Shown here piece by piece: positions 6,514-63,853 of a stretch of 64,000 nucleotides of DNA. Numbering within the stretch: position 1 is the stretch's first letter; each line of letters starts with the position of its first letter. Where the stretch lies: contig OZ287754.1 in NCBI GenBank assembly GCA_965649765.1, positions 35,774,001-35,838,000 on the forward strand, written 5' to 3'. The notes beneath the pieces are model-generated. The model had not been told where the DNA came from. It did no database searches and worked only from the letters and a program-made list of their open reading frames with translations. A program made the position numbers and the translations under genes. The DNA comes from Bispira polyomma (Eukaryota).

Positions 6514-6785
6514 GGGGGCCGCAGTGGCCTAGTGGTTAGCAAGTATTGCGCTTTACAATCACTGGTTTTTCACCTCTGGGATTGGCTGGCGTGGGTTCCA
6601 CTCCTGTCAATGCCTATGTGGTAAAGGTTGTAGTTCCTTAGTGTGGGACGCTGGTCTTAGTGCAGAATCTTGATCAACTGTTTGCAGTGTTTCCTCCAGC
6701 TTTTTCAACTACCCGCTCCAATATAATCTATATAGATACTAGAGTGGACGTTAAATATCCCAAATTCAAATTAAAAAAAAAAAAT
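6514..6785 (+). mobile_element. tRNA-derived SINE copy 2 (more diverged)
   Basis: Colinear with 3477-3735 and ends in an A-rich tail. Confidence 0.88.
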
Positions 6786-13282: not shown

Positions 13283-14272
13283 ATGCCTCCTAAAAAGGAG
13301 TTCTCTTGTAGTGCTTGGAAAGACATGAATGGCCTGTGGGAAAGCGTTGTCATTTTCAAATGGAGGACAGTGTTGCCGAGGATGTGACCCTGTTGATTCT
13401 TTTACTTCAGGTAATATGTCTGATTCAGTATCCGGTCAAATTCTGCAGCAGTTACAAGCTATGAATAAAAAATTGGAGAGCATGGATCAACGGGTACAGG
13501 TCACGGAGGCGGCACTGTGCTCACCCAGCGCCAATAAGGCATGTATGACTTCTCAAACCAATGTTAGTGTTGCTAGTGTATCTGAGCCAGCAGTAGTTGA
13601 AGCTGTGGTCCCCTCATTAGAGTTCTTACGTACAAACGAAAACCTGTAGTCGCAGGTCGATCAGCGTTTAGTCCAGCTACAACAACTCAATGAACCAGCA
13701 CGAGGTAAACTTAAGTCCCAACGAGGTGGTGTCGAGGCCCCTATAAAAAAGCATGTTGATCGGCCACAGAATTTGGTCCTATCCGGTGTAAAAAAGACTA
13801 GGCCACTTATGACGACTTTTCACTACTTCAGTTTACCTCGGGATTCGTGAGATGTATACAAGAGCCAAAAATGCCGGAAGTACGGGAGGCAATGTCTCGC
13901 AAACCTCATGGATGATGCCCATGATTTTTCTTGGAAAACCGCTAAAGCTTCTCATGCCATTTTACTTACAAACATGGAGGTAGATCGTTTAAAATGGACG
14001 GATGTGGAAAAGGTGAACCGTGTCCGCAGGACCCACGCACAACGCCATGTTGCCCCGAGTGTGAATGGTTTTGGCTCGTCAAAACAAGTAATAACAAAGG
14101 TAAAAGTCAAGTTAAAACCCAAGGGGTCGTCTGTAGGTTCTTCCAAGAAGGAACGTGTAAATTCAATGCCAGCCAATGTACTTCTGGGCAACTTTTTAAA
14201 CATTGTTGTGAGAACTGCGATGGCTCTCATCAAACCAAGTTATGTACAAAGAAAGGCGTTGCAAAAAACTAA
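13283..14272 (+). pseudogene. Y3 gag-like ORF (disrupted)
   Basis: VVPSLEFLR, KSQRGG, DDAHDFSWKTAKASHA, and C-terminal CRFFQEGTC...HCCENCDGSH. Confidence 0.75.
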
Positions 14273-14552
14273 GTGGCCACTGCAGAAATGCAGTGGATGT
14301 AAAAAATTCAAAAACCAAAGTGTATTCAAGAAAAGTGTATAACTCCCAGTTTAAGGATTTTCAGTTATGTAAAAAATCTAGACATTCAATGTGTTTTAGG
14401 GCGGGCCAGTCCTATAGGGATGCTGTGGCAAAAGGAAAATGTTATTCAAAAAATTATCAACCTCCTGTTGACGGTATTGTGGAAACACACACTATGCTTA
14501 GTACCAGTAAAACTAAAACAAAGGCTTTCACAAATCCTTTAAATAAAAGTGA

Positions 14553-16550
14553 GTGGGTTCAAGTGAGGGGAACGGGAATATTGCTGTGTGTGGCCCATGT
14601 GTGACCACTACAGAGAAAAAACGTGTCCAAAAGGTCAATGTTAACAAAGTGGGCTGTAGAACCCCTGAAAATGTAAACAAAGCTATGTTAACTGATTGTG
14701 ATGACAAGTATGCCTTGGATGTACCAAGACTCCCTGATAAAAGGCAGAAACTGAATAAAGCCAAAAATCGTGAGACTTATAAATTGTGGGATGTCCAGAA
14801 CCAGGGGAAGTTTGGGTTTATCCCGCTTAGCCACTGGGGTGTCCCTGTGTTAGACAACTCTGGCAACAAGTTGCCTGCACACTCACTAACCCTGCATGAA
14901 CATCTGCAATTGGATGGGCGACCTAATTATAGGGGCCTCCAATTACCAGTGACCTCCCAGTTAAAAGCCTCTGTATGGGCGGGTTACTTGCAGAATTACT
15001 GGGATTGGGAGCTACCACTTCTTATCAAGTTCGGATTTCCCCTCGATTGTGATCTACAATCTGAATTTAAGTCGAAGATAAATAACCACTCGTCGGCTTG
15101 CCAATACCCGGAACACGTATCTCACTACTTGTTAGAGGAGTGTAATTTGGGGGCCATGTATGGGCCTTATGCTGCTCCACCACTTGAGAGTTTGCATACC
15201 TCCCCCTTCATGACCCGGGATAAATCAAGTTCAAATAAACGTAGGGTTATAATTTATCTGAGTTGGCCCCATGGCCTGTCAGTTAATTCGGCTGTCCATT
15301 CAGACTCATATTTAGTCAAAGAATTTTTACTCACCTATCCCTCAATTAATACCATAACATCCCAAGTTATAGCCATGGGCAGAGGTTCATTACTGTTTAA
15401 AGCAGATATTAGTCGCCCTTTCCATCATGTGACTATGGATCCGAAAGATATAAACCTATTGGGACTGTATTGGGATGGGTACTATGTAGACGGGTCGCTC
15501 CCGTTCGGATACAAGCACGGATCCGCTATTTTTCAACGTATTTCGGATGGCATACGTTATATCATGAAGGGTCAAGGCCACAACATAATAAATTACATCG
15601 ACGACCTATTATGTTGCTCGACGTCCACAAAAATACATAAAGCCTATCACCGACTGCAGGAACTATTGTCTGAACTAGGCCTCACATTGAGTGAGAAAAA
15701 GCTTGTTCCCCCTGCAACCTGTGTAACGCGTCTAGGTATTGATATTGACACCACTAACTTTACTACTTCAATTCCACCTGAGAAGCTAGTCCACATACAA
15801 ACTATGTCTAATACTTGGGCAAACAAAAAATATACAAAGCGAGAATTACAATGTCTACTTGGGTCACTTTTGTATGTGTCCAAGTGTGTAAAGTACTCTA
15901 GGTTTTTCCTCAACAGGATGCTGCAACTTCTCAGAAGCAACCATAAAAGTAACTCGTTCAAAATTTCCCCTGAGTTTGGACAAGATCTAAATTGGTTCAG
16001 GACCTTTTTGAAGAAATACAATGGCGTTTTCTTCATTTACCACCAACCAATTACTGCTATGATTGAGTTGGATGCTTGTTTGACTGGGATAGGGGGAGTT
16101 TATGGAAACCAAGTATATTCTTTGCCAATACCTCTAGAAATGCAACAACAAAACATTGCATTTTTAGAAATGTTGGACATTCTTTTTGCCCTGAGAATGT
16201 GGGGCCATCAGTGGAAAGATCATAGAGTGCTCATAAAGTGTGATAATCAGGCGGTAGTAAGTGTTCTTACAAATGGGCGAACTCGAGATCCTGACTTGGC
16301 ATTGTGTTCTAGAAATATATTTATGATGGCCAGCCACTTTGATGTCGATATACAAGTGATTCATATATTAGGTGAACATAATACAACTGCTAACTTGCTG
16401 TCCAGGTGGACCAACTCAACACAGGACAATAGTCGTTTACATACTCTTGTAGGTCAAGTCCTGCGGTGTCCTGTAGATGAAAAGCATTTGTACCTTGATA
16501 AAAAATATATGACGTTGAATACTCTGCAAATGTTCTTATTTTCTAGATAG
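14553..16550 (+). CDS. Y3 pol: reverse transcriptase plus RNase H (665-aa open frame; true 5' start probably upstream via frameshift)
   Basis: LPFGYKHG, NYIDD, DACLTG, LEM, CDN, NTTANLLSR. Confidence 0.9.
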   Translation: MGSSEGNGNIAVCGPCVTTTEKKRVQKVNVNKVGCRTPENVNKAMLTDCDDKYALDVPRLPDKRQKLNKAKNRETYKLWDVQNQGKFGFIPLSHWGVPVLDNSGNKLPAHSLTLHEHLQLDGRPNYRGLQLPVTSQLKASVWAGYLQNYWDWELPLLIKFGFPLDCDLQSEFKSKINNHSSACQYPEHVSHYLLEECNLGAMYGPYAAPPLESLHTSPFMTRDKSSSNKRRVIIYLSWPHGLSVNSAVHSDSYLVKEFLLTYPSINTITSQVIAMGRGSLLFKADISRPFHHVTMDPKDINLLGLYWDGYYVDGSLPFGYKHGSAIFQRISDGIRYIMKGQGHNIINYIDDLLCCSTSTKIHKAYHRLQELLSELGLTLSEKKLVPPATCVTRLGIDIDTTNFTTSIPPEKLVHIQTMSNTWANKKYTKRELQCLLGSLLYVSKCVKYSRFFLNRMLQLLRSNHKSNSFKISPEFGQDLNWFRTFLKKYNGVFFIYHQPITAMIELDACLTGIGGVYGNQVYSLPIPLEMQQQNIAFLEMLDILFALRMWGHQWKDHRVLIKCDNQAVVSVLTNGRTRDPDLALCSRNIFMMASHFDVDIQVIHILGEHNTTANLLSRWTNSTQDNSRLHTLVGQVLRCPVDEKHLYLDKKYMTLNTLQMFLFSR

Positions 16551-17438
16551 AATACCTGTGCGACAGTTACTGTACAAGAATGCTACACAAAAATTGCAAC
16601 TTGCCTTCTCTAGATCTACTGAGAGGTCTTACACTGCCATGTATCGACTGTACTTGGCCTTTGCTGCCTTTATGGACTTGCCTTTACACCAGGTGACTGT
16701 GTTTGACCTTTTGTCTTTTTTAGAACTTTTTCAATGTAATAATGTCAAACCAGCCCATATGGCTAACTACCTTTCTGCGATAAAAGCAAAGTCCATTCTG
16801 CACAACGTCCAAGTTCATGCCTTCAGTGACCCCCGCATTGCTTATTTTCAAAAGGCTGCCCAAAGGACCTGCTCTCTTACATATAAAACTAAAATTATTG
16901 ATATACCAATGCTACATAATATAATAGAGTTGTGCAACACTACCTATATATATGGGTCTGATTTACAAGGACTTGTACCTGTTAAGTTATTTCTCATTTC
17001 TTTGGTTGTCAAACCTAATGCCACACTCTGTTTCACAATTTTCCCCTCTTAAACATCTAGCAATAGCAGATGTAATGATACATCAAGATAAAGCAGTTTT
17101 ACTCATAAAATGGTCTAAGACCATGCAGTCAAATAACCAAATTAAGCTTATTACTGTTTCACGTCTTCTGGGCTCATCCTTATGCCCAGTCGGGTCACTG
17201 GAGGACATGTTGGCACTCACTCTCTCTGGGGATAATTCCTCCCTCTTCCAAATTAAAATTGACCAAAAATGGGTTCCATTGATAGATTCAAAAGTACGTC
17301 GTCACTTTAGTAGCATTCTCGGTTGCAATTACACCAGTCTGGACTTACCTTCCACGCTTTCCGTCGTTCAGGTGCAACTTTTGCTTTTAATCACAATGTT
17401 AGCATTCAAAACATCCAACAACATGGCACCTGGACTAC
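16547..17438 (+). pseudogene. Y3 tyrosine recombinase (frameshifted, truncated)
   Basis: MANYLSAIK, IKWSKTMQ, FHAFRRSG, HGTW. Confidence 0.85.
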
Positions 17439-17984
17439 TGTGAAATATCAGTTATACCCATTGTAATACTTGTAATGATAATTTTCCATTACTTAAATTC
17501 AGCGATTGCTGAACTGTAATATTAGTAATTAAATTCTCAACTGTAATTGAAGTAATTAAATTCTCAAGTAACTATTACATAAGTAAGCTATTTCTGTAAC
17601 TGTTAACTATTACTGTAAATTTTGTATTTCGTGTTAACAGAATATATTATAATGCTGACGTGTAATTAACTTAACTTCATTTGGGATTGTAAGGTCACTT
17701 GCGTAAGGGCCTAAGGGCCTCCTCAAGTAACAAAGACAATAAACTTTCGTGCTAAGGTGACCTTACTCTAAATTTAGGCTAAAACATTTATTTAAGGTGA
17801 CCTTAAGTCACTTTAAGTTTGTGCCAAAGTTTAGTTTTCACTTACTGGTGACCTTAGTAGCCCTGTACATAAGTAGCCTAACATGTAGTCTAACAATAAA
17901 TGTTTTACCCGCATTCTGTGTATACCTATCTGTCTTCTTAATCTTGACCTCTGACCTGTTGCCGGGGAAATGAGCTCTCTGTCA
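17439..17984 (+). repeat. Unclassified LTR-like segment (TG...CA, AATAAA)
   Basis: Interrupts the Y3 YR at TG. AATAAA...CCGCATTC and AAGGTGACC motifs are shared with 39795-40207 and 45611-45951. No TSD. Confidence 0.35.
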
Positions 17985-20529: not shown

Positions 20530-20739
20530 TGTTGTGGTCACGTCAGTGGAAAAAAAATTATATACATTATGGTAAACTTTCCCTCCTAGAAATTGTTTAC
20601 TCAGTAACACCTATCACAGTCTAGGAGACTTAAGTCACACAACCAATCACCTTCCTTCTTAAATGAACCCCTTCCCGCTTTTTCTATGATATTGGCATTA
20701 ATTAGTTGTAAGTCTAGGAAGCAACACTCTGAAAGATTT
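20530..20739 (+). repeat. Y4 repeat A1
   Basis: Matches 26097-26325 except that it lacks 19 bp (TGCTAGTATAGCATGACAA). Confidence 0.95.
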
Positions 20740-20916: not shown

Positions 20917-22269
20917 ATGGGAAGAGGTAAAAAGAGACATCCCGCTGTAAACACAGTTATGTGCTCGAGGTGTGACATATCTCACACTCGTCCAGTCGGG
21001 AATAGGTGCACTAGGACCACTGAACCGTTGATTCCAGGGGAAGATTCATCACCCAACCGGGATCTCTGCACAGATAACTTTGACGGTGACACCGCGAGCA
21101 GCGTTTCTGAGAAAGTAAGTTCAGACCACTTTTATCGTGATATGCACACCAGACAGCAAGCTATGATGCAAACCCTCCTTACCACAGTTTCCAAACTACA
21201 GGAGGACGTGTCTGACCTCAAGAAGGGGCGAACCGACACCCCTCTCCCTCAGTTACTACCCGCTACTCCAGCTGTCGTGTCACCTCACCACACATCTGCT
21301 ACACTACTTCACGTACCAGCTCACAACACGCAGATCCTTCCAGACCATACCTACAGGCACCTCACACAACCTGTGTTGCATAGTGTACCTAGCAGTACTC
21401 ACCCACATAGAGACGTCCATCACAACGTTTGCTCACCTCACGTCAACCCGTCCCACGTAACACCCCCTTTGCAGCCTCAACCACAGGCAGCAGCCAACGT
21501 AGACAATTATGGTCAGGGTGTTACTCAGCGCGCGTTACAGGATGCCATCCTACCCACACCGGATATCTTAAGACAGTCGTCGACGATACAAAATGAAGTG
21601 TCACTACGCCTGGCGAGGTACGAGGCTTGGGCGGCTAACGAGAGCGTACAAGGTAAGCTCACTTCAAAGAAAAAATCTGGTCGTTATAATGTGTCTGACA
21701 TTTGTGTTACTGACCCGATGCAACGATGGCCAAATGAGGCCTGCTTTTCAGGCGTTAATAAGAAGCGGGTCTCGTTTGACGACCTCAGCGTATCTCAATT
21801 TGCAGCCGGACAAATCCAAAATATCTTAGACGTACAGAATCCGACTATCTCTCGGGCGATGCTCTCGCAACTTGCCGACACACTAAAGGACGCCTCCAAC
21901 ATATCCTGGCCAATTGCACGGGGGGCGTACGCATGCAATATGCATGATGTGGAGGAGGGCCGTCTGACTTGGTTAAATGAAACTAAATGGACTTTAAATA
22001 GGTTGTCATACTCTCAGGCCCTTGTCTCCAACCACACCACTCCAAGCGCCTCTTCCACCATGTCAACTACCAACAAGCCGGAAATGCCCTGTAGACATTT
22101 CCAAAAAGATCAATGCCAGCATCAAAAAGACCATGAGGGGACGAATACCCTTTTTAAACACATTTGTGCTAACTGCTATCGGTTGAATAAAAAATCCAAC
22201 CCTCACCCGGAGTCCAAATGCTATAAACTCCATGGACGACCTTCTACTACAGCAACTACTACCCAATAG
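20917..22269 (+). CDS. Y4 gag-like protein (450 aa)
   Basis: N-terminal CSRCDISHTRPVGNRC and C-terminal CRHFQKDQC..H / HICANC..HPESKC zinc-finger-like motifs. Confidence 0.88.
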   Translation: MGRGKKRHPAVNTVMCSRCDISHTRPVGNRCTRTTEPLIPGEDSSPNRDLCTDNFDGDTASSVSEKVSSDHFYRDMHTRQQAMMQTLLTTVSKLQEDVSDLKKGRTDTPLPQLLPATPAVVSPHHTSATLLHVPAHNTQILPDHTYRHLTQPVLHSVPSSTHPHRDVHHNVCSPHVNPSHVTPPLQPQPQAAANVDNYGQGVTQRALQDAILPTPDILRQSSTIQNEVSLRLARYEAWAANESVQGKLTSKKKSGRYNVSDICVTDPMQRWPNEACFSGVNKKRVSFDDLSVSQFAAGQIQNILDVQNPTISRAMLSQLADTLKDASNISWPIARGAYACNMHDVEEGRLTWLNETKWTLNRLSYSQALVSNHTTPSASSTMSTTNKPEMPCRHFQKDQCQHQKDHEGTNTLFKHICANCYRLNKKSNPHPESKCYKLHGRPSTTATTTQ

Positions 22270-24900
22270 GACCACGGACTGCCTGCAGTCACCACCACCA
22301 GCAGTTATGACTTGAATCTGGATAACGTACATAGTGCGAGTCAGAGAAACTTAGAGAATTATCTTAAGCAAATTACTAGGGTGGACGATAATAAGAACCA
22401 TATTTTAGAAAACACTTTCAGCATTAGTACTAGGCGTAGTCATTGTGATCAATTACCTGTAGATGACAAGGCTAATCCATCACAGTTTTTATCTAGTTAT
22501 GGCGACTCACGTGTTGGCTGTTTATCAGCTAAAAGTGACAGTTCTAAATTTATTGTTAATCCAGATCTTAGTGACTGTGATGTAACGGCTTATGAAGACA
22601 ATGATACAGAACTCACGTCTCCATTGTGTGATATGTATTTCAGTAACAGTTGTAATGTTCAGAATGTTACCAATTTATGTTACTTAGTGTGTCGTAGTAA
22701 TGCATGTCTTTCAGGTGTCTATATATGTAATTATGTACAAGGACACTGGGTATTCAAAAAGTCCATAATTTCACTGGATTATATATGGCCAATAACCTAC
22801 TCAGGCACTGGTCCCATTCCAGGTCTCAGTAACAACTTCCTACAGCACAAGAAAAAACACAATAAACTACCAACAAAAGACATCACACACACACGCACCA
22901 CACTAGGTAGCACATTATACTATACAGACATCATTGACAGTATATGTAAGCGAGATATTCAGAAACACGTATACACACAGACTGCAGTTACCAACTCTGA
23001 AGCTGCCCCAGGCAGCACACATATCAATAATGTACACACTTCATTTGCACTCATGCAATCTGGATGTAATGAGGACATTATAACAGAGGAAGTTTTAACA
23101 AAACATCCCTTAGACAGCAATAGTGATTATCACATGATAGAGGACTCCCCTATTAAAAACCACAAAACTTATGGCTACATTCCACATAAGCTTAACAGCT
23201 TTGTATTCACAGGTCCTGACAAGCAAGAAGTCGACATCAACTCTTATGAGAAACTGGTACAGGTGGCCAACGTTGTAAAATCCACTAAAGTATCAAACTA
23301 CAGGTTAGCTCGTATACCACTTAAGAGTAACCTTAACGTAAAAAAGTGGCAAGAATACTTAGTTGATTACCCTGACAAGATTATTCTGCAGTACGTCCAA
23401 TTTGGCTTCCCCATATCTTTATATGAGAGACATAGATTACAAGTCACCAATGTCAAAAATCACTATTCAGCCAAAGCCTTTCCTCAAGCAATAGATGAGT
23501 ACTTCATTACTGAGGTTAGCAGAGGCACCATAGTTGGTCCAGTAAATAGCGATATACACCCAGACTTACACTGTTCCCCACTCCTTACAGTTCCTAAGGA
23601 CATTGACCAACGTAGACTGGTATTAAACTTATCTCATCCTACAGGTCAGTCTGTGAATGACTGTACTGTAAAAACCAAATATGACCATATCGACTTTAAC
23701 TTGAGACTACCAACCATTGATCTTATAACTTCACATATTTTGAGTATTGGAACTAAGGCTACCTTAGCAAAGGTGGACGTGGCCCACGTTTTTCGAAATT
23801 TAAGAATAGACCCCTACGATTGCCTCAAACTCGGATATTTTTGGAGAAACAACTATTACATCGATTTAAGTTTAACTTTCGGCTTAACTCACGGCACGCT
23901 GGCGTTTATGATGGCATCAGATTGTATTACTTATATAATGAAACAAAAAGGCTTTACGGTCTTTAACTACATCGATGATTTCATACTCGTAGAGTCGGAA
24001 GATAAGGCAGCCTTAGCTTACAGCACTTTGCAACAAATCCTAGTAGATTTAGGTCTCCCCATTAATGCCAAGAAATTAGTTCCCCCTAGTAAACGTGTCA
24101 CTTGCATGGGCATTATAATTGACATCGATAATAAAACCCTCAGTATTGACGAGGACAAACTGAATTCCATATATGATACTTGCGTCGAGTTTAAATACCT
24201 AAAGAAGGTACGTAAACAAAAATACCAGTCCTTACTGGGAAAGTTGTTATACATACACTGTTGTATTAAACCTTCCCGCATTTTTATGAATAGGATGTTA
24301 ACATTACTCCGAGAATCTACCAGTAGTAATACAGTCACGCTGACTAAGGACTTCCATCAAGACTTAGCATGGTTTGTACGTTTTCTCATTCAATTCAACG
24401 GCACCACCACATTTAATCATGTCAATAAACCTCATGATGTCTGCCTACAAGTCGACGCTTGTTTATCCGGGATAGGCGGTATCTGGAACGGCAACGTCTT
24501 TAAAACTCCCCTCCCCTCTTTCATGACTCACACATTGTCCATAGTACATTTCGAGATGATAAGCATAGTAATTGCGTTAAAACTGTGGGGTCACGAGTGG
24601 ATAAATCAAAAGATCAAAGTTCAATCTGATAACATGGCTGTGGTGGCTGTAGTGCAGTCATCAAAAACTAGAGACAATTATCTAGGCTTATGCCTAAGGA
24701 ACATCTGGCAAATTTGCGCTGAAAAAAATATTGACCTTGTTATTAATCACATCCCTGGTAAGGAAAACATCATCGCTGACGCCCTTTCGCGATGGTATGA
24801 ACTTGAACATTATGGTAGCCATATCCGACAGACTATTATTGACAGTTTTTCCATATATGACATACCCCTTGAATTTTTTACACTGGATACTTATATATAA
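22270..24900 (+). CDS. Y4 pol (RT plus RNase H), in frame with gag after a single TAG
   Basis: KVDVAHVFRNLRIDP, LTFGLTHG, NYIDD, DACLSG, SDNM, ADALSR. No stop between 22270 and 24897. Confidence 0.93.
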   Translation, partial: DHGLPAVTTTSSYDLNLDNVHSASQRNLENYLKQITRVDDNKNHILENTFSISTRRSHCDQLPVDDKANPSQFLSSYGDSRVGCLSAKSDSSKFIVNPDLSDCDVTAYEDNDTELTSPLCDMYFSNSCNVQNVTNLCYLVCRSNACLSGVYICNYVQGHWVFKKSIISLDYIWPITYSGTGPIPGLSNNFLQHKKKHNKLPTKDITHTRTTLGSTLYYTDIIDSICKRDIQKHVYTQTAVTNSEAAPGSTHINNVHTSFALMQSGCNEDIITEEVLTKHPLDSNSDYHMIEDSPIKNHKTYGYIPHKLNSFVFTGPDKQEVDINSYEKLVQVANVVKSTKVSNYRLARIPLKSNLNVKKWQEYLVDYPDKIILQYVQFGFPISLYERHRLQVTNVKNHYSAKAFPQAIDEYFITEVSRGTIVGPVNSDIHPDLHCSPLLTVPKDIDQRRLVLNLSHPTGQSVNDCTVKTKYDHIDFNLRLPTIDLITSHILSIGTKATLAKVDVAHVFRNLRIDPYDCLKLGYFWRNNYYIDLSLTFGLTHGTLAFMMASDCITYIMKQKGFTVFNYIDDFILVESEDKAALAYSTLQQILVDLGLPINAKKLVPPSKRVTCMGIIIDIDNKTLSIDEDKLNSIYDTCVEFKYLKKVRKQKYQSLLGKLLYIHCCIKPSRIFMNRMLTLLRESTSSNTVTLTKDFHQDLAWFVRFLIQFNGTTTFNHVNKPHDVCLQVDACLSGIGGIWNGNVFKTPLPSFMTHTLSIVHFEMISIVIALKLWGHEWINQKIKVQSDNMAVVAVVQSSKTRDNYLGLCLRNIWQICAEKNIDLVINHIPGKENIIADALSRWYELEHYGSHIRQTIIDSFSIYDIPLEFFTLDTYI

Positions 24901-24906
24901 TTTCAG

Positions 24907-25887
24907 GCACCTCAGACTCAGCTGGTCCACTGATACAGGGTGCTTTTAGACGACTCAGACAAAGCCATAGACCCAGAACACAGAGACAATATGACAGCCA
25001 ATTTAGATTTTTTCTCAGCTTTACAGTCTACTACAACTTACAGCACACATTTAGCTTTAACAGCATCATTGCATTTCTAGAATTTCTCACACAAACAAAC
25101 ATTTCCTATAAAGTTATCTGTAACTACCTATCGGCTGTGAGGTATAATGCAAAACTCTTGAATATCCAAAACACAGGGCTATACGACCCTAGGTTAGCAC
25201 TATACACCAGATCACTTGAGTTAACCTCCAAGTATAAACCTCAAATTAAAGGGGTCTTTGATTTGAACCAACTATGTCAGATCTCACAAACCTGCGAATC
25301 TTTACCATGTCCTGAGTTATATAGAACTGCATTCCTTTTTGCCTTTTTTGGTTTTCTTAGGAGTTCCAACCTTACCACAACCTCAGGCAGTCCATTTGAT
25401 CCAACTAGACACCTGACCAGGGCTGACGTATTATTCGCCCCCCCCAGGTATTCACCTTATTTTAAAATGGACTAAGACTAATCAGAGCAGATCCAACCCA
25501 GATATTATACAATTACCCCAGTTGACAAACTCTTGGCTATGCCCTGTCAGAGCAGCCACAGCTTTATTTCAGAAATACCCCATGGATCCACGGGGTCCAT
25601 TACTAGCAAACCCCACAGACAGAGGCACCTGCCTCTCAGATACAAAACTTAGAACCACATTGAAGAACATTTTGATTCACTTAAACATACCAAGGGAAGG
25701 TCACTCATTCCACTGCTTCAGGCGTTCTGGAGCCTCACTTGCCTTCAATTCAAACGTAAAACTTCAGCACATACAAAAACATGGTTGTTGGAAATCAGAT
25801 GCTGTTTGGTCCTACCTTCAAGCCACGTCACACGCGGCTTCCATTATTCCTTCTACTTTTGCTTCTATTGTCTCTTCTACTTTCTAA
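24907..25887 (+). CDS. Y4 tyrosine recombinase (probable spliced second exon; +1 C in the C8 run at 25438-25445)
   Basis: FFGFLRSSNL, KWTK, HCFRRSG, HGCWKSDAVWSY give the R-K-HxxR-H/W-Y catalytic set. Confidence 0.88.
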
Positions 25888-25894
25888 TTTGGCT

Positions 25895-26098
25895 TTGGCA
25901 TTTTTAAAATTTTACCTTAAATTTTACTTTGTACAGATGTAAATAGAGACAGTAGTTAGAAATAATAAATATATCCCAAACAGCATCTGGTTACCATTTC
26001 TAAAAACCTAACCCTTGTAGGTCATAACACTGAACTTCGAACTACAAGGTCAATTATAAGATTACAGTCTACTTAGCTCCACACATTTTTAGCTACTG
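25895..26098 (+). repeat. Y4 repeat B1
   Basis: 204 bp; appears identical to 26770-26973 by eye. Confidence 0.95.
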
Positions 26099-26325
26099 TT
26101 GTGGTCACTGCTAGTATAGCATGACAAGTCAGTGGAAAAAAAATTATATACATTATGGTAAACTTTCCCTCCTAGAAATTGTTTACTCAGTAACACCTAT
26201 CACAGTCTAGGAGACTTAAGTCACACAACCAATCACCTTCCTTCTTAAATGAACCCCTTCCCGCTTTTTCTATGATATTGGCATTAATTAGTTGTAAGTC
26301 TAGGAAGCAACACTCTGAAAGATTT
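26097..26325 (+). repeat. Y4 repeat A2
   Basis: Direct repeat of A1. Confidence 0.95.
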
Positions 26326-26769: not shown

Positions 26770-26973
26770 TTGGCATTTTTAAAATTTTACCTTAAATTTT
26801 ACTTTGTACAGATGTAAATAGAGACAGTAGTTAGAAATAATAAATATATCCCAAACAGCATCTGGTTACCATTTCTAAAAACCTAACCCTTGTAGGTCAT
26901 AACACTGAACTTCGAACTACAAGGTCAATTATAAGATTACAGTCTACTTAGCTCCACACATTTTTAGCTACTG
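26770..26973 (+). repeat. Y4 repeat B2
   Basis: Direct repeat of B1. Confidence 0.95.
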
Positions 26974-28220
26974 ACGCTGTAACACTTGACCCTAATTTAT
27001 ATAGTACACTTAACAGAGAAATACGACGCCAGTTCTTAAGCAGATCTTTTGGTTTGTCCCCTTCGGTATGCAGTTTATTATACTTTGCCTTAGACTCAGA
27101 GGCAGGATACCCATAATGTAGCCTTCATTAGGGGCTCTTACTATAAAATATTTTAGTTTGCACCAAAAGACTTTGTAAAAATCGGCCGGTAGGCCATCTA
27201 TGCTTGGAGTTTTATTGTTCTTCACATTTTGAAGTACTTTACCTAGTTTGTCTATTGTGATTGGACCACCTATCGAATTAGATTCCAGGTCAGATAATAC
27301 ATTATTATTTTTTTTAGTGACAACTGCTAAAAATATTAATGTTTCCCATTAAGTTATCGTTTTTTTCAGAACAACTTTGCACCATAACACATTACTTCAT
27401 TGAGAATTTCTTTTTGACATGTTAAGAAACCACCATTATCTACACAGAGTCTTCTTATAGTTTTATCAATAAAATGTTTTCTTTCTAAACCACAAAATAT
27501 CTTGTTGGTTTCTCATTAAGCAAGAGGTGTTTTGCACAAGAGCGATTCATATAACCAGTTATTTTCAATTTCTTGATTGTTTGCAATTCTTTTTTCATTT
27601 GATCAAGTTCATCTAAACGGGTATTATTCTTTTCGATGTTTTCTATTTGCCTTTTAAGTTTTTCCTTTTGTAAACGTTCTTTTTTCTTTAAAATACTCAC
27701 AAACTTAATAGTTTTCCCCCTAATTTTTAACAGTATTATTTCCAAAAAAGGTGCTCTATGTCACAGTAAATTTGATTTCTGAGTCCTCCATATAATTCAG
27801 ATAGTCTGTGTTATAAACAGGTAATGCATACTGATATTTTATTTCCTTTATGGCTGTGTTAACAATGTCTATATAGTCTGAGTTTCTTAAGAGGCTGCAA
27901 TTAAGGTGCCAAATTTCTTTGCCCTTCTCAAATTTGTTTATAATTAAGGTTAACTCAACAGAAGAGTGATCACTCCTATAACTTGGTTTTATTACACAAC
28001 TGTTTATAAGATCATTCAAATTATTAGAAAATTATAAAGTAATCTAGATCGGCTTGCTTAACAGGATTGCGACAACACCACGAGTATCTTTTTAGATGTG
28101 GATTCTGATGCCTGAAAGTATCTATTAAGTCATGTGCTTTGATTAGGTCAAGCAAGGTTTTTCTTAACTGTGAGTTATTAGTATTCACATAGTTGCCACT
28201 ACTATGTATCAGTAACCACA
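26974..28220 (-). mobile_element. L1/Tx1-like LINE ORF2 5' part (endonuclease end, RT start), continuous with 18400-20529
   Basis: YRSDHS, KGKEIWHLN, EKPTRYF, NNKTPSIDG, WRRISLL. Confidence 0.85.
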
Positions 28221-34203: not shown

Positions 34204-36887
34204 TCACACGTCAAAGTTCACATTAAAGAAGTGTATGGGCACGTTATGCCATATGTAGTTTTGCCATAATATTTCAATTTCCCTAACTCTTGGAGGAATC
34301 TCAGAATATAATCTTGATAATGTGTTAGCTGTACAATTCTTTTTCCCCATAATATGCCTAAGCTTAAGTATAATGTCATAAGTTGCTGTTAAGAGCCATA
34401 TATTTCTCAAACAAAGTGCTAAAAATTTGTCCTTAGTTTTGTCACTGCCAACGACCAAAACCACAGCCATGTTGTCGCAGTTTATGATTACCTTCCTATG
34501 CGCCCACTGAACGCCCCATACTCGAATGGCCAGCAGTATGTTAAGCATTTCTATGTGTACAATCGTCAATTTTTGTCCATAAATATTATACAGGGGTGAT
34601 GCATATACCTGGTTCATGTACACGCCCCCTAAGCCTGTTAAGCAGGCATCTATAAAAACTTCATTATTTACTGTATCGACAATGGGTTCAATATAAGTAA
34701 TCCCGTTATAGTTGGGAAGAAAGCAAACGAACCAGCCTAGATCTGCCTTAATTTCTTCAGAAATTTTGAAACGTTTAGCATTGGCGTTATTTCTAAAAGC
34801 CATCAATAACCTATTTATGAAAATACGCGCTGGCTTGACGCATTTATTAATGTATAATAGCCTGCCCAAAACAGACTGAAATTTTGACCTAGAAATCCAC
34901 TGTTTCTTCAACGTTTCTACACATATGTGATATGTTTCCTTAATTTTTTCTTCAGTAATGCTAATAATACCTTTAGCGATGTCTATGTCTATTCCAAGAC
35001 AAGTGACCTGCTTGCCAGGTTTCGAAAGCTTATCTGGATTGATGGGAAGTCCTAGGGATTCAACAAGGTTATATAATTCAGCAAATGCTTTTTCTGAATC
35101 TATTTTTTCTGAGACACATATGTAATCGTCAATGTAACAGAAACATTTATGGCCTAATTTTCTCATTCTAAAGCTATTACGTCAGAACAATGCTGAAACG
35201 CTGCTGAGCCGTGGACCCAGCCGAACGCTACCGCAGGATCTATGTACTTTTCGCCTTCCAAATTTATACCGAATTTTAGTGCGTCGACTGGGTCCACTCT
35301 TAAATTTCTGAACGCCCTGGCTACGTCCAGTTTTAATATTCTCGCATCTTTTGTTCTGCGTATTTCATCTACAATATCGTCTATATTTGGAAATTTTAAA
35401 TTAAATTCTATGCCATCAAATTCTTTTCTATCGATGTTATCGTTTACTGACTCACCATGTGGAAATGACAAGTCCAGAATGACCCTTCACTTATCCAAAT
35501 CTTTTGGACGCGTTAACAGAGGGGAACAGTGGTAATGCTCACTTTTTATAGTGCTTACTGGGCCTAACATGGCTCCATTGGCTTTCTCTTTATTGATGTA
35601 ATCCCTTACTGCTGTTTTATGTTGAAGGGCAGAATAGTGATTCTTAGTTTCCTTAACCTTAAGTGTATTTGGTTGAGTAAGAGATAACAGGAAACCGAAT
35701 TTCAGATATTGTAACAAAAGTTTGTCGGGGTAATCTTCCAGTGCCTTTTCCCAGCCTTCAATTTTAAGACCAGATTTAAGTGCGATGCGTGCTCGCCTAT
35801 AGTTGGGGCAGCCAGAGTCTCTGATCACTTCAGCTATCTCTACTATTTGATCAACCGTTGTAATGTGCACTGGTAATCTGTCTGGACCAATAAATTCAAA
35901 TTTTGTATCAGAAATTGCTAAAAAACCCTTAGTTTTCGGAGGAAATTCAACATTCTTACTGCTCTGAACCCTGGGGGAAATTTCTTGCCCCATTGCCTGA
36001 GAAATTTGGTCGGATAAGTCGGACGACGCCATGAGATTCTTTACCTTGTTTCCAAGATTACATGTGTTAGTTAAGTTAGTACTGTGTTGTTCTGGTGAAA
36101 CATTTCCACCTAAACTCTTCTCAACTCGTTCACTACTCTTAATTAGCTCATCAATTACGTTTTCCATATATTGTACATATCCGTGTCCAAATTTTTCCCT
36201 AAATTTTTGATCCTGACTGAAATTTCTATAAACATTCTGAGCTTGTGATTTCTCATTTGAATCATAATATGTAATATTTTCATGGACAATGCTCTCCTGT
36301 ATAGTGGTTACTGCTATCTGCATTTTCCCCTGGTCAATGACCCAAATTGGGCCCTCAGGCAGTGAGTGGCATTTACTATAACTACAACATTTTTTCACAT
36401 AATCATATTTTTGAATGTAAAACCCATCCAATTCAGACCTGCCCGTGTTAATATATAATACAGGTAAACTATCCCCAAATTTCTCATGACAGTATGACCA
36501 GTTCATGACACATACTTCAGCAGTAACCAGTTCTACCTTAGGAGCATTGTTGGCAGCTTCATATATCTGAAAGGGTACATTATGGTTTTCACAAGTACAA
36601 TTATCATTACTGATAGGTATGTCCACATTCAAAGCATTATCAACAGCCTTACATTGCTCAATAAAGTCAATATAATTTCCAACATCTATTAGAGGTGTCT
36701 CTACATAGGCAAGTGTTTCTGAGAACCTTTCTTGGTTCAATGTTTTATCATACATACTGGAAACTGTTAAACTATTATAGCTTAAGTAATCACTATTGAT
36801 ATCTCTAAAGGTTCCTAAATTCTTTCTAATATTACTGCCCTTAACATGCTCTTCCATTGTCCCGTTTCTTGGTCGTCGGCAAATGTC
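34204..36887 (-). pseudogene. Y6 pol RT-RNase H (two frameshifts, near 35480 and 35165)
   Basis: LDVARAFRNLRVDP, AFGWVHG, CYIDD, DACLTG, CDNM. Confidence 0.9.
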
Positions 36888-38053
36888 CTAATTATTAACT
36901 GCTCCTTCTGCCTGTTTTGTCGAATTCTCCCGATAGCATTTGAATTCCGGATGTGTTGCTTCTTTCTTGAGAACTGTGGCACAATGCCAGCATTGATGGC
37001 GATATTGGCCGAGGTCCGCACGATGAGAACATTTGCCTGGATTGAATAGCTTGCAAATTGTTCGCCCTTGACTTGAATTATGGGAGTTGGAGGTGGAATT
37101 GGCTGAGAAAGCCGTGTTTCCATTCGCCATCGCCGTCTGGGAGGCACTAATACGATTTAGTGCCCACTGAGTTGTGTCACTCCATCCCAAGCGCACAGCT
37201 TTGACCTCATGCATACTCATGGACCACGCAGTGCGCACAACTTCCCATGGCAGAGAGGCGACATCCTGAAGAGAGAATATGACTTGTTCTACCATCGCCT
37301 TCATAACTACCGGATCTGAGACCTGAAGGGCATTTGCTAATTGTCCTGCAGCCCACTGGGGGAGCGACAAGTCGTCATACATAGGCCGTTTGCGAGTCGC
37401 CCCGCCGACCCAGCCTTCGTTGGCCCATCTAAACTTAGGTTCTGCTGACGCGATGTCCATGTTATTAAACCGCCCTGATTTCTGTCGCTTACCTTGGGCT
37501 AGGGCACACTAGGCTTGCGCCTCATACTGTGCGAGAGCAGATTGGGAAGCTGAAGATTCACCCCAGTCACAGAGATTGTGTTAAGTGTCCCGCCCTGGTT
37601 ACCGGTGAATGGCCCTGTAGGTTGGATCTGACTCGACTGCACGTGGGTTGCCACCTTTGAAGCTTCACGGGCTTCCATCTGATTAAACCTCCGAGTAATC
37701 TGAGAGTTTGACTCCTCCAGCCGTCAAAGTACCGACATCATGAGGGTCATCTCACTACTTGCCGTCGGTGCGGTGGAAACAGGGAAATCCCGTTGGCTGA
37801 ATTGCTCTGGACAGTCCGAGAGTAAATGAGCCGTGGCTGTAGCTTGGGCCTGTGTACCCGTTGCGAGTATTGGTGACGCAAATTGTGAATTGTCGCGTTG
37901 ATAACATGGCAGATTAAGACTGTTAAGTATACTGTCTGATACCTGTTCCACCTGGACTGTTTTCCTTGTTGGTCGTCCTTTCCCCGTACTCTTGCTACTC
38001 TGTCTCATGGTTTTCTTTGCCACGTCCGAAGGTGTCTTCTTGGTACGTCCCAT
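36888..38053 (-). pseudogene. Y6 gag-like (disrupted)
   Basis: QGKRQKSGRFN, YDDLSLPQWAAGQL, CKLFNPGKC..HQCWHC..HPEFKC. Confidence 0.8.
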
Positions 38054-39473: not shown

Positions 39474-39724
39474 TTTTTCAATTTGGATGTTTAACGTCCA
39501 CTCTAATACCTGTTTAGGTTATATTGGGATGGGTAGTTAGAAACGCTGGAGGAAACACTGCATACAGTTGATCAAGGTTCTGCACTGAAACCAGCGGTCC
39601 ACAGTAAGGAACTACCACCTTTCCCACATAGGCATCAACGGGATTCGAACTCACGCCGCCCAGAGGTAAGAGACCAGTGATTGTGAAGCACAATGCTTGC
39701 TAACCACCAGGCCAACGCGGCCCC
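39474..39724 (-). mobile_element. tRNA-derived SINE copy 3
   Basis: Reverse complement of copy 1. TSD TTTGTCTTCGGT at 39462-39473 and 39728-39739. Confidence 0.92.
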
Positions 39725-39794
39725 CCATTTGTCTTCGGTAGCAGATATTAATTTTTTCTGTGCAACTGGAAACAAAAAAAACAAAAAGTATTTC

Positions 39795-58274: not shown

Positions 58275-61200
58275 GTGTAAGTTACTGCGGGTGTAACAGC
58301 ATGACAAGTCAGTCGCAAAAAGTACTTTACTGTATATTTATCCACCACTGGTGTTGATTGACTTATGTCCAGTCAGGGTTAAGCTAGAGGAAGGTCTCTC
58401 TACTTATGTATTTACTGACCTAGCAACCAATCAGAGCTGGTCTAAGGGAAGGTTTTCCCACCTTTTTCTCATTCTTGCCATTTAATATGACCAAAGTGTC
58501 AACAAGTGATATTTTTTATTATTTTAGCAGCCATATTGGAAAAACGGAATATATAAAGTTTATTTAAGTTTTAAAGTTTTATCTGTTTTAGTGGTTTTAA
58601 AGGTATTTAAAAAACAGCAGGCCATGATGGACACTATCTTACTGTGCACTCGACAGAAAGACGTGTCTGAGCTAAAATCTAAGGATAGCGAACAAACAAT
58701 TTGTGAGGAAGTCACAGCAACCGCGGTGACCACGGCTCCAGAGGACAATTTGCAAAGTAATGTAAGTCATAACCTAGATTATGTCACTGGCCCACCTCAA
58801 TTTCCACATAAACGTATTCGGCTCACTACTACACCGAACCAACCCGCACTATCTCAGCTGCCTAGGCAGACGGTACCCTGGAAACAGTACGACTGGCACC
58901 AGGACCCTTCTACATCTGGTAACCCGTACAAAGTCGCACCTGCACTGAGGGATCCTCACTGGGGCATGCTTAATGCGACAATCAATCCAGAGAGGCAGAG
59001 TCACCCTACACCTGAACAACAGTAGACACAACACTGGACACAAGACACAGCTCGGGACATACACCCAACTACCGACATGCTATGAAACTCAGTTTTAATT
59101 CAAAGTGAAGTCAATCACAGACTTGCTTAATATGAAGCCATGGCAACGGACAACATACTGCACGGTAAGCTCTATTCTAAATAAAAGTTGGGACGATTTA
59201 ATACATCTGAAAAGTGTACCACAGATCCACAGTATAGGTGGCCAAATAAAAGTTGTATGGTGGGGTTATCTAGAAAACGTTCTCAGTATGACGATTTAAC
59301 CATATCGCAATTCGTGTCAGTTCACATCCAAAACATGCTGGAGGTAAGGAGCGCAAGTACAGGAGAGCCATGCTAAGACAGTTAGGGGACACGCTGCGCG
59401 ATGCCAGCAATATCTTGTGGCAGGTTGCAAAGGCTACATATGCCAGCAATATGCACGACTTGGAGGAGGGAAAACTCACACGGGCAGACAAAACTAAATG
59501 GAGCATGAACCAGATCTCATACTCTCGGGCTTCCATGTCAGCCTCAACCACCATTAATGCAACGAAGACCCGCATACCCTGTAGGCATTATCAGAAAAAC
59601 CAGTGTTCACATTGCGGGGATCACCAAAATGGTACGACTAGTTTTAAACATATCTGTGCAAATTGTTTTAGGATCAATAAGAGAGAAAATGCTCATCCAA
59701 AGATAAAATGTTTTAAGCTGAATGGGAAACCTCAAATGGGGGGATCAGCAAGACAATAGGACAGGGAACTGCTTATAGAAACAACTGTTAGCGGGGGGAG
59801 TGTTAACTGTTAAAGTGGTAACTGTAGCAATGATATGTTTGACGAGAACAATGACAATGAGAATAGTATAGATAACAAATTGTTTGTTTTAGGAACAGAC
59901 AATGAAATTAATTATTTAGACTATTTGAGTGAAAATAACTCAAGTGATGTGACAAGTAACACATTATGCAGCACTAGTACCAGTAACAAGGCAGTGCTAC
60001 TAAATGCCAGTATAACAGACAATGATAACCCGACATGGTTAACAGTTCATGTATATAGTAGTTGTAGTGTGAGTTACAATACTAATCCATTATATTACTT
60101 AATGTGTAAAAGTGATACTAACATTAATGGAGTATATGAATTATGTTATAATAATGTATTTCAGGTGACATTCACAAAAACAAACTATGACACAAAAGAC
60201 GTATGGCCTTTATCATACTACAAACAAACAGACGTGTTAGCACATTATACAAAATACACAGGTACTGACACACATACAGACAAAAGCAATTACACAAAGA
60301 AACGCATTGGGACAAAACACGGGAAAACAACACATGTAAGGACAAAAATAGGACAAGCAAAAAATTACATTGATATAATAGACAAACTGTGTGATGACAG
60401 TGGTAATAGTCTCTTTGCACATAACTGTTAACCAAGTACTAATGTAGAATTGGCACCCAGCCATAAACAACAGCTAGAAGACAAAACAATTGAAAACACA
60501 GAACATACGACCAGGACGGTTAACATTGAGAAAGCACAATTATATGACAACATAATTGACACAGTACTCACCAGACGGACAGCAGATAGTTTCCCAATGG
60601 CCAATCTGTATGGGAGTACTGATTTGTATAAGGTGAATCTAGACGACAATAACTACCTATTAGACAATTTAACTGAAGAACACAAAATCGACAATAAGGA
60701 CAGTGACTGCGACTTAGCTGGTAATCCAGTAATGCAATATGTATTTATCCCTCGAGATAATACAACTTTTAAGTTTATAGGTCCAAGTAGAGCCCCAGTT
60801 GATATTAAGGACTACGCTACATTGATAGAAATAGCTGACATAATTAAACAAACAGGTCAGCCAAATTACCAAAATGCACGAATCCCTATTACTATGGATC
60901 TAAATATAGACAAATGGAAACAATATTTATGTCACTATCCAGATCAGCAATTGCTGCAGTATTGGGAATATGGCTTCCCCATATCACTTTGTGAAAGAAC
61001 TCGTTTGAAAATACAAAAGGTGATAAACCATTACTCGGCTTTACAATTCCCTGAATACATTGACAAATATTTTTATAAAGAGTTGAATAATGGTACTATT
61101 AGTGGTCCTATTAGTGCATTATGAAATGATGACGTACACTTCTCTCCATTATTGACTTGTCCAAAGGACGATGGTAACAGAAGGCTCATTTTAAATTTAT

Positions 61201-63853
61201 CACACCCAAGTGGTGAATCAGTCAATGACTGTACCATAAAAGGCACATAGGATAACACTACATTTGACCTAAAATTACCTACAATTGACCAGATTGTTGA
61301 CCATATTAAACATATTGGCCCCACAGCAAGAATCGCGAAGGTGGACGTAGCCCACACTTTCAGAAATTTAAGGGTGGATCCTTTTGATTGCCTTAAACTC
61401 GGTTACAATTGGAAAAACAAATTCTACATTGATGTAACGCTTGCGTTCGTGTTAACATGCAGCACGGCCTTATTTATGAGAACCTCAGACGTGATAACAT
61501 ATATTATGAAAGCAAACAACTTTAAGGTCTTAAACTACATAGATGATTTTGTCATTGTAGAGTCAAAAGAAAAGGCCATCTTAGCTTTTGAATTTTTGAA
61601 AAAGATACTCGCTGACCTTGGTTTCCCAATAAACAAGAACAAATCTGCACCCAGCACACGCGTAACATGTATTGGCATAACCATCGATGTAGATGAAAAA
61701 ACCCTGAGTATTGATAAAGACAAACTTAACTCAATACACGAAACGTGTGTAGAATTTATTCCTCTCCTTAATATTCGGAAAAACAAATCTCAATCCTTGC
61801 TGGGAAAACCCCTTTATATACACAGGTGCATTACGCCAGCAAGGATCTTCATGAAATGAATGTTAGCAATATTGAGAATCTCAACTAGCCAGGAAACAAT
61901 ACAGTTGACAGAAGACTTTAAGAGGGACTTAAACTGGTTTCTTAATTTTTTATCTGACTACGATGGTACTACAAAATACCAAAGTGATGACATAGGACAG
62001 AATATTTCTATGCAAGTAGACGCGTGTCTAGAAGGCATTTGGGGAGTGTTAGGTAGTGACGTATTTACAGCCATGTTGCCTTTATGTATCAAACAATTAC
62101 TTTCTATAGTCCACTTTGAGATGATAAGCCTCCTGGTAGCTATTCGACTGTGGAGACATAAGTTAAAGGATAAAACAGTATAAATTCAATCAGACAATGC
62201 TGCAGTTGTTTCTGTGGTGCAGTCTTCTAAGACTAGGGACCTATACTTAAGTACATGTTTAAGGAACTTGTGGTTAGTATGTGCTAAACACAACATAACT
62301 TTAACCATAAAACACATAAAAAGAACATAATAGCAGACGTGCTTTCTAGGTGGCATAAATTAGGGTCACATAGCTATGAAATGAAAAGTGAAATTGAGAA
62401 TAACTTTATCATGAATGAGGTGGACGTTTTTAAATGAACAATGAAATCTAATTACAGGTAACTCAACAGCAGTCACAACCCTGATTTCTGAAGCTATGAT
62501 GAAGATTCGTGACAGTCAACAACCAAGGACACGTTGACAATTCGAAAGACAATTCAGACTCTACATGGCCTTCATGGTCTACCATAACTTGGAGGATCAC
62601 TTCTCTTCTACTTTCACTACTTGCTTTCATGAAATACTTGCACCTGGTGAATATTTCCAGTGAAGTGATTAATAATTACATAGCTGCAATCAGACATTCA
62701 TGCAAATTATTACACATACAAAATAATTATTGCAGAATTGGGATGTATCAGAAATCCTTGGCAATTAATTCGAGATTCTCACCTAAACCAAAAGGCAGCT
62801 TAGATATTTACCAATCAGAGCAAGTATCAAAACTATGTGAAACTTTGGCTTTCCCAGAGTCATACAGAACTGAGATATTGTTCGCTTTCTTTGGTTTCTT
62901 AAGAATCTGAAACTTAACGCCTTCAAGCTTAAATACTTTTGACCCTACTAGGCACCTAAATAGGGCTGATGTATTATTTGCCGACCCAGGGATCCACCTA
63001 GTACTTAAGTGGTCGAAGACCAATCAAACCAGAGAGAATGCAAACATAATCCAGCTTCGGTATCTCAAAAACTCTTGGCTCTGCCCAGTGGCATCAGCTT
63101 AAGCTCTTTTTAGAAAGTACCCATTGCCTCCACTGTGCCCTTCACTGGCAAACCCGGGGTACAAGAGTAAATGCAGTTCAGATTCAAAATTAAGAGAGGC
63201 ATTAAGGTCTCTACTAATAAAAGTGGGTATCCCCCTTTAAGGTCACAGCTGGGGGCCGCGGTGGCCTAGTGGTTAGCAAGCATTGCGCTTCACAATCACT
63301 GGTCTCTCACCTTGAGGAGGCGTGAGTTTGACTCCTGTCGATGCCTATGTGGGAAAGGTGGTAGTTCCTCACTGTGGGCCGCTGGTTTCAGTGCATAACC
63401 TTGATCAACTGTATGCAGTGTTTCCTCCAGCGTTTCCAACTGCCCATCCCAATATAACCTAAACAGGTACTAGAGTGGACGTTAAATATGACAATTCAAA
63501 TTCAAGGTCACAATAATCACTGTCTGCGAAGATCAAGGGCTTCATTGGCTTTTAATACAAATGACAAATTACAATATATTGGGTGCTGGAAATCGGACAC
63601 CATATGGAATTACCTCTAATCGACTTCTCGTGCTGCTTCCATAATACCCCAAACATTTGCGGCTATAATCCCTCCTACTTAAATTCTTTTTTGACTTTGG
63701 CATTCATAAAAATTTACTTCATTTTAAATTTGTATGTACAGTTAAAGATTTAAACCATGTAAATAAAATTCTCCAAACATGTTTTAAATCATAGTTATCA
63801 CTGGCGTTGCTTTACACCAGTCCTTGCAACTTTAAAACGTCTGACAGCTACTG
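58275..63853 (+). mobile_element. Y8: degraded YR retrotransposon, Y4 subfamily
   Basis: A-like start AGCATGACAAGTCAGT, gag to 59759, pol 59760-62451, YR 62458-63680, and a B-like tail ending AGCTACTG as in Y4. Confidence 0.9.
63251..63503 (+). mobile_element. tRNA-derived SINE copy 5, in Y8 YR
   Basis: TSD core AAGGTCACA at 63239-63247 and 63504-63512. Confidence 0.9.

Follow-up and report, generated by a model that had tools for sequence, protein, structure and literature searches.

How does a retrotransposon make its reverse transcriptase (RT) when gag ends in a stop codon and pol continues behind it in the same frame? The question is raised by a 64-kb stretch of contig OZ287754.1 of Bispira polyomma (hereafter the window), in which at least seven remnants of tyrosine recombinase (YR) elements from several deep lineages form a dense cluster. 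In three of these, labelled Y4, Y6 and Y8, the gag open reading frame (ORF) terminates in TAG GAC with pol continuing in frame, just as had been stated in the initial annotation of the window (Table 1). By structural definitions of Ngaro (PMC4157794 and PMC8547959, with the quotation of Poulter and Butler in PMC13003380; papers are cited throughout by identifier), the three appear to be members of one old lineage of Ngaro-like YR retrotransposons. The best explanation of the junction, and in our judgement a fairly probable one, is that the UAG is read through under the stimulus of a long-range RNA duplex, while the recombinase is spliced separately.

Past the stop, the pol frame stays open for 876 codons in Y4 and 466 codons in Y6. 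Y8 had been credited with one further stop. It is more decayed than that, with a stop 17 codons past the TAG and more stops and frameshifts besides.

We surveyed the junction across the assembly (1.035 Gb in 75 contigs), where one gag query gave 9074 first-look candidates, 150 of them scored. The survey covered 60 whole elements, hand-picked from the match lists to span families, and 120 shorter loci. In the Y4/Y6 lineage, gag terminates in TAG at the homologous place in 20 of 22 whole elements, the other two having a frameshifted gag. TAG was likewise present in 27 of 30 Y4-like loci (one TAA, one CAG, one frameshifted upstream) and in 27 of 30 Y6-like loci (one TAA, one interrupted, one frameshifted). 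Two patterns in which the stop codon was left unconstrained, matched to the genome, gave TAG in 53 of 54 matches and in 97 of the 100 matches listed from a total of 101 (one TTG, two out of register). These sets overlap and their members are mostly recent copies, so the independent figure is the count per family with one copy each. Counted this way, an in-frame TAG is found in 16 of 16 families, and the base at +4 (the U of UAG being +1) is G in 15; one large family has UAG-U. Chance does not account for the junction. Another gag end, heavily decayed, lies at window 2168-2170 and reads TAG followed by G.

A midpoint-rooted RT/RNase H tree, in which 67 of 72 elements were placed, put all 22 UAG-labelled tips inside one clade of 25 (Shimodaira-Hasegawa-like support 0.997). 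L100, L101 and the window element Y2 also fall inside this clade and are not among the UAG-labelled junctions. The two subclades of the UAG clade have an RT identity of 39-46%.

Synonymous sites are saturated across the UAG families. Over the last 215 gag codons of 14 families, the amino acid is kept in 51 columns and the third base is invariant in only two of them, both splice-donor codons (Gly and Lys). When the 13 gag columns of Lys, Glu or Gln are taken, the donor included, the donor Lys alone has an invariant third base and A and G are mixed in the other 12; all 10 such columns in the RT of nine intact ORFs mix A and G, none being invariant. A change from TAG to TAA is the same kind of transition as these A/G third-base changes, yet TAG is found in 16 of 16 families. 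Since third bases are free elsewhere in gag and RT while every family retains TAG, we consider TAG to be selected over TAA. On these comparisons the in-frame UAG is real and under selection.

The stretch behind the stop points the same way. The first in-frame ATG lies 8-121 codons past the stop, at no shared position and often after out-of-frame AUGs. The 736 codons from the stop to that ATG, counted in one copy per family with a choice leaning to less decayed copies, hold one in-frame stop (in the decayed Y8), while the other two frames hold 42 and 130. Judged from its sequence, the junction is very probably a site of programmed read-through.

Which signal would stimulate it? UAG-G is a type III context in the scheme of Beier and Grimm, in which A at -1 or -2 favours read-through (PMC3159437). 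Contexts of this type generally need a downstream structure, which starts at +12 in murine leukaemia virus (MLV) and spans more than 3.5 kb in CIRV (carnation Italian ringspot virus; PMC13517186). The context found here, with A at -2, usually A at -1, and G at +4, would itself promote read-through. The initial annotation had proposed recoding of the MLV kind with a small local stem in Y4. The stem GACTG-CCTG-CAGTC is indeed present 7 nt past the Y4 stop (22277-22290), is worth only -5.7 kcal/mol, and occurs in part of the Y4 subgroup only. Nested folds over +4..+74 beat shuffled sequences in none of 11 UAG families (z -1.48 to +1.73), and we rejected the local stem as a general stimulator on these two grounds. 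In Y4 the two arms of the stem both pair with the distal site, which makes the stem look like a side effect of long-range pairing. Like MLV, the elements would make a Gag-Pol fusion via UAG-G with a stimulator starting near +12; unlike MLV, which has a compact local pseudoknot after an 8-nt spacer, they have no significant nested fold. Of that proposal, read-through stands as the best explanation, given the 16 of 16 TAG codons, their selection and the duplex described below, and the compact local structure found no support.

Some bases are nonetheless held at a constant distance from the stop: C at +13 in all 16 families, and A at +21 and G at +22 in 15 each. We looked, without guidance, for long helices between the bases past the stop and other parts of the element. 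Of 13 families, most gave partners some 240-250 nt ahead of the pol stop, within the RNase H codons D-N-M-A-V-V-x-V-V. Bases at about +10 to +30 past the UAG are predicted to pair with this RNase H coding region, 2.3-2.8 kb downstream, and such distal pairing would account for the conserved bases. When the proximal segment +8..+36 was scanned against all windows from stop+60 to stop+4200 (633-690 per element), the RNase H site was the top partner in 14 of 14 UAG families, at -22.5 to -43.9 kcal/mol against window means of -6.6 to -9.6. At other junctions it was best in 0 of 18 (ten -1 type, five +1 type and three UGA), with energies of -6.4 to -18.2 kcal/mol and 26-517 windows better. This test omitted L098 (no RNase H match) and L095 (interrupted pol). 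The predicted helix starts at +10 to +12 in most families, and in Y4 it has a 13-bp core with 6 bp more past a 1-nt bulge. Six further stretches were fetched later; the RNase H site was the best partner in all five with an RNase H region (-27.0 to -41.3 kcal/mol), the sixth, L188, having none in the stretch fetched, while unrelated TAG sites in the same stretches gave -3 to -14 kcal/mol. These five copies include one new family, and two families without AG at +22.

The two arms also covary. Five of 29 columns in the Y4 subclade and 10 of 29 in the Y6 subclade have changed on both sides, and compensatory columns remain paired in every family at +18 and +27 in the former and at +12, +17, +20 and +22 in the latter. 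Column +18 of the Y4 subclade runs through U-A, C-G, G-C and A-U against a synonymous Val position. Departures at +20 and +22 from bases that could be read as a splice acceptor have their match in synonymous changes of Leu codons 2.4 kb away. In the true register 73-76% of positions pair, compared with 26-55% in slid registers, and cognate arms have a mean energy of -32.4 kcal/mol against -20.3 for swapped arms.

Splice signals in matching phase accompany this arrangement. All 20 UAG-type elements examined have a phase-1 donor (CAAG/GTAAG or CAGG/GTAAG, the slash marking the cut) 200-209 codons ahead of the gag stop, and the homologous G/GT A is retained in other lineages though the following residue varies. 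A T-rich phase-1 YAG opens the YR frame in most of 36 elements listed and, counted separately, in 19 of 25 rows, including three of three from other hosts; the exceptions are mostly copies whose YR match begins far inside the ORF. The signals are retained in all lineages examined, and the YR frame relative to pol differs among them. Because of that variation splicing is favoured over frameshifting for YR, and the recombinase is probably made by splicing from the gag donor. Patterns for spliced retrocopies, covering donor-to-pol and donor-to-recombinase junctions, gave no matches in the Y4 subclade and one in the Y6 subclade, a decayed donor; as spliced RNAs need not be copied, this absence may say little. 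Joints at the predicted splice sites were absent from three runs of public contigs of unknown kind, which is no evidence either way.

Put together, the unspliced RNA would yield mostly Gag. A minority of ribosomes would insert an amino acid at the gag UAG and go on to produce a fusion of Gag, linker and RT/RNase H, 1327 amino acids (aa) long in Y4. The helix, whose start lies some 10-12 nt past the stop's U, at the ribosome's mRNA entry side, would promote this. In a spliced mRNA the gag donor would be joined to the acceptor just past the pol stop, giving Gag(1-245)-YR and taking out both the UAG and the two arms of the duplex.

Several observations count against this account. Amino-acid constraint on the linker before the first ATG is weak, with nonsynonymous diversity (pN) of 0.40-0.56 and synonymous diversity (pS) of 0.46-0.86 from poor alignments, so that freedom from stops alone argues for translation of the linker. 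The cognate distal arm ranked first in only 7 of the 14 rows of the swap matrix, the permutation values (p <1e-5, 0.003 and 0.0003) ignore kinship and so overstate the support, and the scored windows were picked after the pattern had been seen. Three of the five further copies are close to families already used. Relatives from another host retain an in-frame stop (UGA, three of three clear cases) with no such duplex. Finally, in the Candida retrotransposon Tca2, which has an in-frame stop and a putative pseudoknot, a 300-nt junction gave no read-through in yeast (PMC2194720); a fragment lacking its distal partner may explain that result.

Each rival explains less of this pattern than read-through with the duplex. 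The least unlikely, though we think it improbable, is that read-through is real and the duplex does another job, either helping or tuning the YR splice by looping out the 3.25-kb intron, or acting in packaging or reverse transcription. Both arms do lie within the predicted intron, the distal one about 250 nt before the acceptor, and the long-range pairings of tombusviruses take part in more than one process (PMC3234231). However, the -1 and +1 lineages carry the same splice signals and no duplex (0 of 15), and in most families the helix starts at a constant +10 to +12 from the stop. We give little credence to pol starting at its own AUG, by reinitiation or an internal promoter. Some families have an in-frame AUG 8-21 codons past the stop, and the Tca2 junction has a minor promoter (PMC2194720). 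Against it, the position varies over 8-121 codons and often lies behind out-of-frame AUGs, the spacer stays stop-free and in frame, and the identity of the stop is selected.

No better placed is alternative splicing of pol, in which the gag donor would be joined in matching phase to a weak acceptor at +20 to +22. Of 14 whole UAG elements listed, 13 have a phase-1 YAG whose last base is +22, the A (+21) and the G (+22) are each as widely conserved as noted above, and the same donor probably serves the recombinase. Yet the AG is absent from the Y6 family and two others, and the Y6 change is matched in the distal arm, where G-C becomes A-U. The tract before +22 has 1-5 T in 15 nt, compared with 6-11 at the recombinase acceptor, and TAG/G itself is in phase 0, out of frame with the donor. 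Such splicing would also leave unexplained the need for a stop that is both TAG and in frame. The faintest candidate is ADAR editing, by which a portion of the RNA would carry UIG (Trp) in place of UAG, a reaction known from hepatitis delta virus. ADAR favours the triplet UAG and there is a duplex close by; the stop, however, is outside the core helix, and no copy has TGG at the stop position among the 54 and 100 listed pattern matches or the 60 loci, though edited RNA would be reverse transcribed. Stop-codon read-through stimulated by the long-range duplex remains the reading we prefer.

Other lineages in the same genome show other junctions, at which the stop varies (TAA, TAG and TGA in the -1 and +1 types). 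In the first type, A AAA AAC adjoins the variable stop and pol lies in -1; a hairpin follows closely in most, and the local fold has z of -1.5 to -3.2 in four of five. Such signals, with a 7-9 bp hairpin, lie at window 14263-14296 in an element at about 13600-17440, and at L061, L064, L067-L074, L113, L115, L122, L126, L128, L130, L171, L172, L175 and L183. In the family L137-L166 the slippery site precedes the stop, with pol again in the -1 frame. Within the -1 clade, the fused or odd junctions of L116-L120, L123-L125 and L127 were left unlabelled; in L116-L120 and L124, gag is fused to pol or runs beyond its usual end, perhaps through length changes in the A run. In a +1 clade of nine tips, gag ends in GUU followed by UAG or UGA, with pol in +1. 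Loci of this type are L169, L173, L174 (CUU), L176-L181 and L185, with the gag stop near 2410-2480 in oriented loci. Here about +9..+35 pairs with sequence 170-210 nt downstream in seven of seven tested (-27 to -34 kcal/mol, energies without a shuffle comparison), making the junction a candidate shifty stop with an extended stem-loop.

Five loci came from metagenome contigs. Three have clear junctions, all gag-UGA-pol in frame, a count that omits L131 (gag C-terminus not detected) and L133 (no junction). In L134 the pol linker contains repeated Cys-x2-Cys units, and the locus has a local stem-loop (z -1.95). The UGA loci group apart from the UAG clade in a tree whose deep nodes are not rooted. 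A gag profile gave no matches in metagenome contigs, nor did an RT profile in viral contigs. If these assignments are true, the wider family would have four gag-pol modes: a UAG aided by the 2.5-kb duplex, an in-frame UGA (in another host), slippage into the -1 frame with a hairpin nearby, and a shifty stop leading to +1, with a stem-loop of 170 nt.

With less assurance we lean towards a wider reading, in which RT would be made only from unspliced RNA still carrying the RNase H region, the kilobase-range duplex inside the element's own pol serving as an integrity check, and in which the family would switch among the four recoding modes while keeping one spliced Gag-recombinase fusion throughout. 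A check of this sort is known from plant RNA viruses, and our searches returned none for retroelements. That the duplex may tie RT synthesis to intact, unspliced RNA is suggested by analogy with the tombusvirus model of quality control (PMC3234231).

Long-distance read-through signals are known from tombus-, polero- and enamoviruses (PMC3234231, PMC9553062). A close likeness is to the proximal and distal read-through elements (PRTE-DRTE) of the tombusvirus CIRV, where the context is UAG-G, the polymerase is made by read-through and the stimulator comes from pairing over kilobases (PMC3234231, PMC9553062, PMC13517186). In CIRV and poleroviruses this is a short contact of a local stem-loop with a 3' replication element, whereas here it would be a long, near-continuous helix with RNase H coding sequence, in an animal retrotransposon known from sequence. 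Tca2 resembles the present elements in having gag and pol parted by one in-frame stop, and differs in that the stop is UGA and the element has long terminal repeats (LTR). Ngaro elements, of the order DIRS, share the arrangement A1-gag-RT/RNase H-YR-B1-A2-B2 and leave no room for a methyltransferase; a YR ORF overlapping the end of pol, in this lineage in the -1 frame, is a further likeness. A difference is that in Xenopus Ngaro every ORF is described as overlapping (PMC9210276). Elsewhere YR expression is supposed to occur by frameshifting (Poulter and Butler, quoted in PMC13003380), while here the in-phase splice signals point to splicing. In the passages of the YR-element literature covered, including PMC8547959, PMC9210276, PMC6681497, PMC3783388, PMC7192593 and PMC4157794, we found neither read-through between gag and pol, nor a stimulator acting at long range, nor splicing of the recombinase; outside that scope lie Repbase reports and the main reviews (Poulter and Goodwin 2005; Poulter and Butler 2015), which may mention in-frame stops. 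The 'readthrough' of 10.1101/2021.04.08.439009, in the passage concerned, is transcriptional.

The Y4 element carries A1, gag, pol, YR, B1, A2 and B2 on one strand, with the internal repeats 3' of YR. Joints in public contigs place its empty site at 20522/20527 to 26972-26976. We call ORF1 gag-like from its position and Cys/His motifs. It matched no Pfam family at E 0.01; its homologues number 2474 cluster representatives at E<=0.001. The ESM Atlas gave unnamed eukaryotic clusters only, plus one zf-CCCH lead (10% of members). Pol matched RVT_1 (E 6e-6, below the cut-off) and RVT_3 (E 1e-4). The recombinase is broken by a frameshift in this copy into two ORFs that overlap at 25417-25475; the third ORF of L105, an intact relative, matches Phage_integrase in Pfam (E 4e-7). 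Pfam scans of the element proteins detected no protease or DDE integrase domain, nor a methyltransferase family among 10 proteins. As only 90 codons separate the RNase H Asp motif from the pol stop of Y4, there is no room for a methyltransferase, a domain whose loss is homoplasic according to a warning in PMC4157794. We looked for a DIRS1-type internal complementary region by comparing the A2-B2 interval with either repeat, and the longest reverse-complement match was 8 nt. A DIRS1-like identity is ruled out by this match length, by the direct rather than inverted repeats and by the absence of a methyltransferase domain.

Table 1. Coordinates of the junctions, predicted RNA arms, predicted splice sites and element parts (window positions, or locus positions where a locus is named; a slash marks the splice cut).
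Feature	Position	Strand	Remarks
Y4 in-frame UAG, candidate read-through codon	22267..22269	+	context CAA-UAG-GAC
Y6 in-frame UAG	36888..36890	-	TAG GAC, pol in frame
Y8 in-frame UAG, decayed copy	59757..59759	+	TAG GAC, pol in frame
Y4 predicted proximal arm	22277..22295	+	+11 to +29; includes the 5-bp stem
Y4 predicted distal arm	24640..24659	+	RNase H codons after D-N-M-A (D codon 24628); -39.2 kcal/mol, best of 690 windows
Y6 predicted proximal arm	36867..36882	-	+9 to +24; 16-bp helix, G-U allowed
Y6 predicted distal arm	34445..34460	-	RNase H; -30.4 kcal/mol, best of 633 windows
Y8 predicted proximal arm	59773..59788	+	+17 to +32; 16-bp helix, G-U allowed
Y8 predicted distal arm	62202..62217	+	RNase H; -32.5 kcal/mol, best of 690 windows
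Predicted phase-1 splice donor in Y4 gag	21653..21658	+	CAAG/GTAAG
Predicted phase-1 T-rich acceptor at start of recombinase frame	24900..24906	+	ATTTCAG/
Predicted intron	21653-24906	+	3254 nt; joins gag N-terminal half in frame to recombinase
Y4 split direct repeat A1	20539..20739	+	201 nt, 100% identity to A2
Y4 gag-like ORF1	20917..22269	+	450 aa from first ATG; C-terminal Cys/His motifs; terminates in TAG
Y4 pol ORF	22270..24900	+	876 codons: long variable linker, RT, RNase H; first Met is codon 122
Y4 tyrosine recombinase	24907..25887	+	H-x-x-R and catalytic-Tyr-type motifs
Y4 repeat B1	25895..26098	+	204 nt, 100% identity to B2
Y4 repeat A2	26125..26325	+	partner copy of A1
Y4 repeat B2, 3' end of element	26770..26973	+	partner copy of B1
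UGA junctions	L132:1562-1564, L134:3007-3009, L135:313-315		UGA-C in two, UGA-G in one; no RNase H duplex

Two other features of the window were seen. A repeat of about 250 nt is dispersed in both orientations (3477-3729, 6521-6773, 39476-39725, 44722-44974 and 63252-63504), one copy of it interrupting the Y8 recombinase, and is probably a small non-autonomous element. Positions 52903-53761 hold a tandem duplication whose period is about 570-600 nt.

The means by which YR retrotransposons produce RT and recombinase from separate ORFs are poorly documented, a passage of one review calling frameshifting for the recombinase 'probable'. The present elements suggest a scheme of three products, Gag, Gag-Pol by read-through and spliced Gag-YR, for which the exact bases and natural compensatory pairs can be named. 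If the duplex acts as proposed, short junction reporters could miss read-through that depends on it. As neighbouring lineages with different recoding occur in one genome, switching between read-through and frameshifting would be open to comparative study. A duplex acting on a UAG stop in an animal retroelement, if true, would extend long-distance recoding signals beyond plant RNA viruses.

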